The notes beneath the pieces are model-generated. The model was not told where the DNA came from. It ran no database searches and saw only the letters and a list, made by a program, of their open reading frames with translations. Below, piece after piece: positions 9,391 to 12,802 of a stretch of 36,008 bases of DNA. The DNA comes from Paraglomus brasilianum (taxonomy: Eukaryota). Position 1 is the first letter of the stretch; every line of letters begins with the position of its first letter. Made by a program: the position numbers and the translations under genes. The stretch lies in the NCBI GenBank assembly GCA_910592345.1, contig CAJVPI010000308.1, forward strand, positions 1-36,008, read 5' to 3'.

Positions 9391-11113
9391 TCAAATATAT
9401 TCAAACACCTTATTCTCTGTAGATGTATAAAGGACATTACTTTTCATAAACCCATTAAATTGGGATGCTGCAGATATAGTATATGCACCCATCTCTTCAA
9501 AATAGAGCCAATCCCCTGGAAATAATTCAGGAAGCCTAGAATCCTTGTTGACACAATCGATAGAGTCGCAAGTTGGACCCCAGACACTGCTCGAATACTC
9601 TGACTCACCAGTCATGGTAGTATCAAAGTAAAATATATCGTCCTTAATAAGGACTTTTGGATGAACAATCTGATGATCAAAAAGGATGCAGTTGAATGCC
9701 CCATACACACCATCATTAATATAATCTTAAACACAAGTAGATAACTCATTAGCATAGTCTTTGTATTAACAGCATGTAAAGCAAACCCTTTGTCGCGCTC
9801 GCAATATCACTCACACATGAAAGACTGTTCATCTCCCGCTAGCTTCTGTTCACTGTCCACGAAATCATTTTCTCCTGCTTCCTGATTTCTCAGAACAGGT
9901 CTTCTAGCAATAATTTGTGTAGCAATAGTATAGGCCGGCGCAGCATAATACCTTCCAGGCTCAGCAATAATGCGTATATCTTCCGGGAAATAGTTCTTTA
10001 ACGCTGTATCGAGTACATTGGCGATTTTTTCGAATGTAATACCATCACCGTTATGCAAGTGAGAGAAACCGCCACCAACGTCGAGGAGACTGAAGTTAAA
10101 GTTGTAGCGTGCTGCTTTGTCAAAAACGACGCGCGCACGCCAAACTGCATCTGCGTAAACTTCTTCGTCGTAGCAGCCACTACCTACGTGGAAGCTATGA
10201 TTGAGATAGAATATCGTAAGATTGACTGGAATGCAATAATCGCCCTCTATTAATTACATACTATTTGATTATTAATTATCATTTTACCTGACACCAATGA
10301 CATCTAGCTCAAGATTTTGTGCAGTTTGCAGTAGTTGATCAACAGATTCCAAGGATGCCCCAAACTTCAGCCCCAACCTGCACAACGATTTAGAATCGTC
10401 TGCTAGTATTCTCAATACTAGTTGTGCACTTGGGAAATGCTGTTTTATCTTATGCAGTTCATCCACATTATCGAAAGTCATCATTCTAACTTCCTTCTGC
10501 GCGGCATAACGAATGAATGATGCTTGTTTGCATGGATTTGCATAAATAATCCTGCCTGGGTCTACGCCCATGCTGAGGATAGTCTGTATTTCCAATTTGC
10601 TAGCGCAGTCGAACCCCACTCCTAACGCGGCAAGGAGTTTCAGCATCATGGAGTCCGGATTACATTTAACAGCTGCAATGTACATAGACAAAAGCGTTCA
10701 GACTCCCAGAAAAGTATTTATATATCATTATCACGTATTTAAGCTATTCTACATTATTACCATTGATTACTGATATACTCGGTCACTTGCATACCATAAA
10801 ACGGTTCAACACGTGGTAAACGAGTTTTCCAGCGCAGATGCTGACGGTAAACTTCACCCAAATCAGCAACGAAAAAGGCATTCTCGGCTTCCAAATCAGA
10901 TTCGTCGCTGACTTTCAACGAGGTAATATGTTGCTTCATCAATTCACTCACGGGTAGATCGCTGATACCAAGCAGATCATCTACAAGCTTAACCTTATTG
11001 AATTTCGATGTGCAGAAGAGATTTGAGCGAAGATGTTCGGATCCACATGTTGATACCGTTGCTGAGAAGCCCTTCATCGATTGATGAGGTGATAAGGTCG
11101 TAGAAATTGACAT
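9391..11113 (-). CDS. SPE1: Ornithine decarboxylase; coding exons 11113-10795, 10672-10288, 10194-9815, 9725-9391
   Basis: PLP-lysine motif PFYAVKCN, GFDCAS, IIYANPCK, SFHVGSG, LDVGGGF, AEPGRYY, YYINDGVYG and catalytic WGPTCD are all intact. Confidence 0.96.
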
Positions 11114-11133
11114 TAGACGATGGTGAAAGGTGT

Positions 11134-11643
11134 TCAGGCGACGCCGGGCCAGGGGGGCGACCGCTATAATGAAAAATTTGTTACCAAGATGCACAAAACA
11201 ACGTTAATCAATGCGAATACAGTCAAACTCCGTTACAGCCAGGCCAATTACAGTTCGATGTAACGGCTTTAATGGCAAATTTTTGAAGCCACTATTCCTC
11301 ATAGTCACAGAGTTAAGAAGTTTACTATGGACCTGAATTGGTTGGCTGTAGGGGAGGCCGACTGTAAAGGTTTAATTATTGTCATGTATATATATTTAAC
11401 TATTTTTTGGAAAAAGTATTCTTGACTATCAGTAAAACTCTAAATACACTGTCTGGTCAAGACTACAGTCGCTGCGTATCTGAATGCTGGTAACGCTCCA
11501 GAATATATGGAGCATCTTGCTTTACTCGGTTTCAGTTGTAGTGAATAGGGCATCATTATATAACGAGTCCGCCTATAATATTTACTAACCTGATGTCCTC
11601 GAAATACGATTAGTTTACCGACTTGTTTTAGTGGTGGCGCCGT
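11134..11643 (-). promoter_or_regulatory. Spliced non-AUG regulatory uORF of ODC: exons 11643-11590 + 11163-11134, (M)APPLKQVGKLIVFRGHQ|RSPPWPGVA*
   Basis: ACG in AAC-ACG-G context. The phase-0 donor CAG|GTTAGT and acceptor TTATAG|CGG join in frame. The PPW motif and TGA lie 20 nt upstream of the ODC ATG, and the upstream leader has no ATG. Confidence 0.7.
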
Positions 11644-12802
11644 GTTGTAGGAACAGCACACTTCCCCAACGCGGAAAAGTGATAACGAAATAGTGAAGAG
11701 TGTCCGCGCAGTATGGAACCAAAAACAAAGCAAGAATAATTAAGTAGGATATCAAGCTGGTCAGTTAAATGCGGTATTATTGAGGTCTATAAATCTCTTG
11801 CGACAAGGGAGACAGCAGAAGGAGCAAAGAGCAAGGGAGAAAAAGTTTTTGGTGTTTTTCTATTGAAAATTTCTATGGCTAATTTTAAACAAATAAATTT
11901 GTAGGACAATTTAAATAAATTCGCCTATCCTTATTATTATGGGTACTTTATCGTTAAAATAATAGTCAAACGTCAGTTAATTGATCTCGAGATGTTTGTT
12001 TGTAAATGCATACTAAAGTCAGTTCTGTTCTTGGCTTCCAGAAAAGTTTGTAACCTTATCATTTTAAACTCCCTCAAAGCAATGCTATCACTCCAAGGCT
12101 AGTTATAAGTATAGCCAATAAACCTTCTAAGCACGGACGTCTTGAGCACAATGAGTAGAACGTCTTTTCTAACGGAAGTGTTCTAAAATTTTCGAGACTT
12201 GGGCCGACACGTTTTTTACATTATGCCCGTACTAAATCGGACCTCATTACTATAGTTTGATTTTACAGGACTAAAGAATTCACACTAACAGCATTTGTTT
12301 ACGAAAATTCAAAGATGAACTTGCCACGAATGGGTAAAGGAAATCACGTTAAAAGATCACTGACAATAATCCTCCAAAGGGCATTCAAAGCAAAAGATAA
12401 CAAGAAGTGATTGTCTTAATCGCTGATACATGAAGAGTAGACCTTTTCTCATTATTATGGTGACGCGTCTCTTGTATTATCTATTATAGAGATGCGGCTG
12501 TGACAAACTGGCCGACATACCAACAACAACGCAACTCAGGAACCCGAAATTAAATTGTGCTCGACATAAAATTGATGTCACATGACTTAATTAATTAAAG
12601 ATTAAGATTAATATTAATATAGTAACTACAGCACAATCATCAAGTAACTACAACTTTTAAGATTTTCATATTTTGCCAACCTTGCCATTCTTTTTGGGAA
12701 AATTCCGTGTGAAGAGTCTATTCCAAAACCGACTAACACACTAAATAAGGCAGCCAACTGAGAATGAATTTACCTTTTTTGAAGTGATCAACTCAATTAC
12801 GG

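Follow-up and report, generated by a model that had tools for sequence, protein, structure and literature searches.

An intron-split, ACG-opened upstream reading frame with Pro-Pro-Trp near its end, a predicted polyamine-responsive element of the uCC kind, in the ornithine decarboxylase leader of Paraglomus brasilianum

The closest described systems are the upstream conserved coding regions (uCCs) of ornithine decarboxylase (ODC) leaders and the uCC of vertebrate AZIN1. ODC uCCs are found in animals, Pezizomycotina, Basidiomycota and Zygomycota, the shortest being a Zygomycota form of 22 codons, and they show adjacent prolines and putative AUU, UUG and ACG starts (PMC2811004, section 6). The Zygomycota case summarised there is that of Ivanov, Loughran and Atkins 2008, and four independent origins of uCCs are argued (PMC2811004). 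The vertebrate AZIN1 uCC (Ivanov et al. 2018) has an AUU start, a stall at Pro-Pro-Trp (PPW) and an eIF5A-dependent queue of ribosomes (PMC11550727, PMC9082881, 10.1101/710061). In mouse liver the strongest Azin1 disome signal lies upstream of PPW, and disome footprints measure 59-63 nt (10.1101/710061). The queuing model requires distances in multiples of 30 nt; the test uORF of PMC9648851 did not itself follow the model, and the role of queue position and backward scanning is treated as unmeasured in that paper. Concerning structure near the start codon, a hairpin placed 6 nt before AUG pushes the yeast 43S complex backwards and reduces 60S joining (Wang et al., 10.1101/2021.12.08.471614).

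The window, the whole 36,008-nt stretch of DNA analysed from Paraglomus brasilianum, carries on its minus strand an ODC gene encoding 472 aa (9391..11113), with three introns backed by RNA joints. The gene was identified by tblastn together with these joints. Its exons match P0015, a protein of 472 aa with the source label Paraglomus brasilianum, which clusters with Glomeromycotina ODCs in a quick tree (SH-aLRT 99). Both ODC Pfam domains, PF02784 and PF00278, are present, and the protein is nearer to human ODC (E 8e-131) than to AZIN1 (8e-91). Alignment to human ODC places the motif AVKCN at 107 and GPTCD at 411, and the residues Lys109 and Cys414 are the counterparts of human ODC K69 and C360. 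With the motifs of the PLP lysine and the catalytic cysteine both intact, the product is, judged from its sequence, a catalytic ODC rather than an antizyme inhibitor, in agreement with the catalytically intact enzyme proposed in a first-pass annotation of this DNA.

RNA contigs also reveal a 34-nt exon extension (10761..10794, minus strand) that arises through an alternative 5' splice site of the first CDS intron. The alternative joint 10761/10672, present in contigs of the runs X1 and X2 of one study, would stop ODC after 119 residues, and the productive joint 10795/10672 is present in X2, X3 and X5. Use of the 10761 donor may be a form of unproductive splicing that adds another layer of control; splicing that depends on polyamines is reported for Azin1 and SSAT (PMC7846877). 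The context of the ATG at 11113 is poor, with C at -3 and U at +4, and several Glomeromycotina ODCs start with MKG, MKA, MKR or MKK, matching a second Met at 11077. The working start of ODC may be the Met at 11077, or both 11077 and 11113 may be used.

The leader of this gene contains a predicted uORF that is split by an intron; all features below lie on the minus strand. The uORF opens with ACG (11641..11643), and re-checking of the sequence confirmed the A at -3 and the G at +4. Exon 1 of the uORF (11590..11643) comprises 54 nt or 18 codons and ends in CAG/GTTAGT, with the donor GT at 11589, followed by a phase-0 GT-AG intron of 426 nt (11164..11589) that ends in TTATAG. Exon 2 (11134..11163) is 30 nt long and encodes RSPPW and four more residues, nine codons in total, before TGA. 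Splicing joins 27 codons from ACG to the stop, in which Pro-Pro-Trp (11149..11157), the predicted ribosome stall site on the basis of PMC11550727, occupies codons 21-23 of 27 and the C-terminus reads Val-Ala-stop. A 20-nt spacer (11114..11133) separates the uORF stop from the first ODC ATG at 11113, and the uORF frame differs from the ODC frame. The ACG, donor, intron length, PPW exon and spacer had all been placed at these positions in the first-pass annotation, and every one of them matches the sequence. It had also described a leader free of ATG upstream of the donor and an intron holding several: no ATG was found between 12011 and the leader donor, and the intron contains four. Up to the limit of RNA contig cover, leader exon 1 (11590..11845) is without AUG and pyrimidine-rich in its 5' part, and the spliced leader, at least 306 nt long, lacks any AUG. 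The chance expectation for CCN-CCN-TGG in a 306-nt leader is 0.024; the motif occurs three times on both strands of the 36-kb window. An in-frame fusion of the uORF with ODC was considered and rejected, as the frames differ and the main frame has an upstream stop in exon 1. In the uORF frame a TAA overlaps the ODC ATG (TAATG; 11113-11115) six codons past the uORF stop, and in L014, a chytrid-like locus of the comparison set, the uORF stop overlaps the main ATG.

Similar to the Zygomycota uCC of PMC2811004, this uORF lies in an ODC leader, is short (25-30 codons here), has adjacent prolines near its C-terminus and uses a non-AUG start in good context, ACG being among the putative starts listed there. 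With the AZIN1 uCC it shares a near-cognate start, PPW near the end, a stop before the main ORF and a gene of the polyamine pathway, but it opens with ACG rather than AUU, its Trp is codon 23 rather than 42-49, and it sits on a catalytic ODC. The hallmarks of animal uCCs, the AUU start and a terminal Pro-Ser, are both absent from the window uORF. The uORF is a member of the described uCC kind. It is less new than was proposed at first, since short Zygomycota uCCs and putative ACG starts had already been described (PMC2811004, section 6). That section names no uCC intron, no start-proximal hairpin and no Glomeromycotina, chytrid or Neocallimastix case, nor does it say which group uses ACG, and supplement file 1 of the same paper gave no match for ODC, Zygomycota or PPW. 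What appears to be new here is a conserved upstream hairpin, as predicted by folding, together with a wider fungal range and a lineage-specific intron.

The junction 11590/11163, a prediction of the first-pass annotation, is borne out by RNA contigs of two studies, in two of four runs (X1 and X3, but not X2 and X5, whose contigs are without cover at this place). In X1, whose being RNA is a guess, the joint has 227 nt on its shorter side, and one 841-nt contig spans 11816, the leader junction and the ODC CDS. In X3, a rhizosphere metatranscriptome of a separate study, the joint has just 18 nt on its shorter side and is weak alone. The ends of the joint read CT..AC on the plus strand. Contig cover of the leader extends to 11816 (X1) and 11845 (X3), and therefore the RNA begins upstream of the ACG, although contigs give neither the true transcript start nor expression levels. 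The X3 contig derives from a related strain and carries a 9-nt in-frame insertion after Trp-Pro, with frame and stop preserved; a loose end matching this insertion is found in X5.

Unspliced leaders were observed in X6, the fourth run of a set whose other members (X10, X13 and X17, from other organisms) yielded no leader contigs. Two X6 contigs run over the two ends of the leader intron (11136-11292 and 11472-11681). An unspliced X6 contig from a related strain has 10 substitutions and 2 insertions as its listed differences, all in the intron, and one change makes the donor the commoner GTAAGT. In the X6 contig of the same strain none of the listed differences falls within the 92 nt of exon, two of the 12 differences being unlisted. 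The source of these contigs may be pre-mRNA or DNA. Retention of the leader intron would break the uORF and place four AUGs ahead of ODC. In the relatives L002 and L006 the uORF is uninterrupted although an ODC CDS intron is retained, so the uORF intron is likely lineage-specific.

Metagenome contigs were scanned for relatives of this ODC, and the best 80 of the 199 obtained were taken further. PPW within 14 residues of a stop and upstream of the ODC match was found in 32 of these best 80 loci, comprising 12 fungal, 19 animal-type and one unrelated-looking locus; the animal-type assignment rests on PPW-x-PS-like ends, and the six such loci included in the tree, which contains no named animal protein, fall outside the fungal clade. 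Within Glomeromycotina, the Glomerales transcript L007 shares with the window 17 of the 18 residues up to Trp, spanning the splice junction. In this one pairwise comparison, 10 of 18 codons differ synonymously and one is changed, and nine of the 13 base changes fall at third positions. The other two frames keep 7/17 and 6/17 residues, and random placement of the 13 changes kept as many residues in 0 of 100000 trials; the two ODC proteins are 64% identical. The uORF is conserved at the peptide level and in one frame, as read from these substitution patterns. Conservation of PPW and synonymous-biased change, two of the features to be looked for in related ODC leaders, were found in the 12 fungal PPW leaders and in the L007 comparison, respectively. 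The AZIN1-like N-terminus of 'PP plus basic' residues did not hold up as a conserved feature, as Pro-Pro follows the start in none of the 10 fungal relatives translated.

The fungal carriers comprise Glomeromycotina (the window and L007), Mortierellomycotina (L002, L005, L006 and L012), L004 from the Mucoromycotina side, the chytrid L025 near Spizellomyces and Rhizophlyctis, and Neocallimastigomycota (L023, L024 and L027). Two more carriers, L011 and L022, are loosely placed in the quick tree, which carries SH-aLRT values only, and so is L015. Fungal loci without PPW are L009 and L010, in leaders of 349 and 1344 nt, and L015. Leaders are short or absent in L001, L013, L016 and L035, and in L003, L008, L020 and L028 the leader falls short of the length needed in their relatives; no Mucorales leader was assignable among the best 80 of 199 loci. 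L004 (156-245) keeps the ACG, the hairpin and the spacing but has Val-Pro-Trp instead of Pro-Pro-Trp, and is thus a natural test of the importance of the first proline. L015 (476-635) lacks both PPW and hairpin; its ATC-ACG-G begins a longer frame in which Pro-Ile-Pro-Cys stands at the distance usual for PPW, and its ODC groups in the tree with P0186, a protein from EukProt. The predicted N-terminal extension of P0005, a protein that groups with Glomerales ODCs, resembles the GHQRSPPW region of the uORF in a shifted frame, which suggests a further carrier with an AUG in the ODC frame inside the uORF. Three animal-type loci (L061, L066 and L069) have PPW uORFs with an in-frame Met and no clear AUU, in agreement with the AUG-started uCC versions mentioned in PMC2811004.

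By analogy with the described systems, we consider it likely that this intron-split, ACG-opened uORF of the known ODC uCC kind lowers ODC synthesis at high polyamines. As in the AZIN1 work, most scanning 43S complexes would bypass the weak ACG and initiate at ODC. At high polyamines, with eIF5A impaired, the few ribosomes on the uORF would pause at Pro-Pro-Trp and a queue would build, and a queued 43S complex would park on the ACG, initiate and feed the queue. On the assumption that the second Pro is in the P site during the stall, the distance from ACG to this residue is 63 nt in the window, about two ribosome lengths, so that a queued 43S complex would be parked on the ACG. Of 13 cases, eight have 60 or 63 nt between the ACG and the second Pro; the other five do not fit a 30-nt multiple, with 51 nt in the four leaders of the Mortierella group and 54 nt in L004, which has Val-Pro-Trp. 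This range of 51 to 63 nt would also suit a uORF that, though translated and conserved, acts as a fixed brake, through mRNA decay after the stop or stall, or in response to a signal other than polyamines. That explanation gains from a published diproline uORF that fitted collision-dissociation better than queuing (PMC9648851), and from the statement that AZIN1 alone had been directly tested as of 2010 (PMC2811004). It loses from the retention of PPW from fungi to animals on one enzyme family, in the 32 ODC loci counted above, and from the N. crassa ODC leader, where translational repression is partly relieved by polyamine depletion (PMC2811004). We regard it as distinctly unlikely and prefer the polyamine-responsive uORF.

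For this uORF, ACG 11643 is the predicted start. Eleven of the 12 fungal PPW leaders have an in-frame ACG with a purine at -3 and with Trp at codon 19-23; in the remaining one, L014, only 12 codons are covered. As L023 and L024 are near copies, the 11 ACG leaders represent 10 distinct sequences. By chance, about 0.016 such ACG contexts would be expected per leader, and several of these ODCs use ACG sparingly for Thr (0/19 Thr codons in L023 and 0/23 in L022). The same ACG context accompanies Val-Pro-Trp in L004. Run as a control on the 19 animal-type leaders, the script that located these ACG codons picked up the known AUU in 14, at a codon distance of 42-47, and an ACG at 19-23 in none, with one ACG at 24. 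The retention of purine-N-N-ACG in the fungal leaders thus speaks for the start chosen in the first-pass annotation. The uORF frame of the window stays open for 32 codons upstream of the ACG, and a real frame might begin here at another near-cognate codon (ATT 11691, GTG 11661 or TTG 11733) and yield a longer peptide. ATT 11691, with A at -3, is followed after 10 nt by the hairpin described below, and a downstream hairpin at such a position can aid a weak start (10.1101/2021.12.08.471614). In the predicted equilibrium fold, the ACG of the window is buried in a second small local hairpin (pair probabilities 0.77-0.87). However, in five of the 10 relatives checked (L022, L007, L027, L004 and L023) the frame is closed by a stop codon 3-12 codons ahead of the ACG, and therefore the upstream ATT and TTG are unlikely to be conserved starts. 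In addition, the peptide likeness to L007 starts only after the ACG. An alternative start in this lineage is accordingly very improbable, and ACG 11643 is retained as the putative start codon.

A 9-bp hairpin of about -10.4 kcal/mol is predicted 5' of the ACG in the window (11659..11681). When the 50 nt before ACG were folded, 11 of 13 fungal leaders reached a z value of -2.9 or lower and none of 13 animal AUU leaders did, their lowest value being -2.13; the fungal set excludes L002, which has 9 nt of cover, and the animal set excludes the duplicate L050. The two fungal leaders that miss the cut-off are the window (-1.23) and L015 (+0.50). A sliding profile over 11 fungal leaders, without L002, L015 and L024, gave a mean z of -4.04 for the 40-nt segment ending at -5, with 10 of 11 leaders below -2, and values from -1.61 to +0.24 at all other offsets; at -5 none of 13 animal leaders reached this level. 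The stems of the relatives end 9-14 nt before the ACG, have stabilities of -8.9 to -15.6 kcal/mol and vary in sequence, each of the seven outer positions being occupied by three or four pair types. An automated helix scan, with a background of 0 to 6.6%, placed a helix in the interval -17 to -9 in 10 leaders out of 11; the exception was the window, where only two of the outer seven pairs are G-C. Pairing is kept in 76 of 77 cells against a shuffled mean of 46.7 (0/20000), a count that is partly circular because the stems were placed by the authors from each fold; the hand-centred fold windows are partly circular as well. The stems were not brought into register by MAFFT. Rfam gave no match with E up to 1 in 11000-12600. 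On the evidence of these folds, the hairpin may be common to relatives across early-branching fungi and may help to set ACG usage.

The hairpin of the window ends 15 nt before the ACG (14 when a terminal U-U is counted), the longest spacer of the set. In the models its stem is clearly the counterpart of the L007 and L011 stems, the differences being U-A to U-G. Its pairing probability is 0.83-0.96 with up to 60 nt of context and 0.07-0.11 with at least 80 nt upstream, as it competes with another helix, and of all the hairpins compared it is the weakest. Taken as a whole, the first exon shows no unusual degree of structure (z -0.11). The weak stem, long spacer and competing folds, a tail three codons shorter than in the related strain and unspliced contigs in an RNA library would fit an element that works in relatives but has lost strength or degenerated in the present lineage, or that intron retention bypasses for the most part; we rate this the least likely explanation of all in view of the strong synonymous bias against L007, the lack of listed exon differences in a related strain with at least 10 intron differences, and the possible origin of the unspliced contigs from pre-mRNA or DNA.

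The fungal hairpins resemble the engineered start-proximal hairpins of Wang et al. (10.1101/2021.12.08.471614) in lying just 5' of the start codon, and their stabilities are near the -12 kcal/mol plateau reported there. They differ in being natural, in lying 9-15 nt before a near-cognate codon rather than 6 nt before AUG, and in being coupled to a predicted stalling uORF; animal-type leaders show no hairpin before the start. In the open literature we found neither a description of such a hairpin nor a Glomeromycotina case, either of which Ivanov 2008 or 2018 could contain. Since the 40S subunit holds positions -9 to -14 clamped in its exit (10.64898/2026.05.12.723742), the hairpin could not slow a 43S complex arriving at the ACG. 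In the polyamine-responsive uORF it would refold at the mRNA exit only when a 43S complex dwells there. Among its possible roles we favour, at about an even chance, that of a rear stop keeping the parked complex in place over the ACG. The push-back result from yeast (10.1101/2021.12.08.471614) argues against this role, and a hairpin that pushes lone complexes back and keeps basal ACG use low is a plausible though less probable choice; action on something else is unlikely. The rear-stop and push-back readings predict opposite reporter results. More tentatively, and with some doubt, one ancient sensor may be common to early-branching fungi, consisting of a hairpin, a 9-14 nt spacer, ACG, about two ribosome lengths and PPW, in which the hairpin would be an undescribed rear stop clamping the 43S complex together with the queue.

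With this uORF, the range of a known feedback switch likely widens to arbuscular mycorrhizal fungi. Gene callers miss the frame because it needs splicing and lacks an AUG. The hairpin is the more useful part of the finding, as it completes a natural element of about 110 nt with start, stall site and structure at near-fixed distances. Such a layout would permit a direct test of queue position and backward scanning against near-cognate initiation. The sharing of ACG, spacing and hairpin from Mucoromycota to zoosporic fungi suggests one early fungal origin, and is thus relevant to the question of a single or a repeated origin of uCCs in fungi. If the three-part sensor is real, it would be a natural instance of a 5' structure under selection for promoting conditional initiation, and a single origin near the root of Fungi would replace the independent fungal origins supposed so far.
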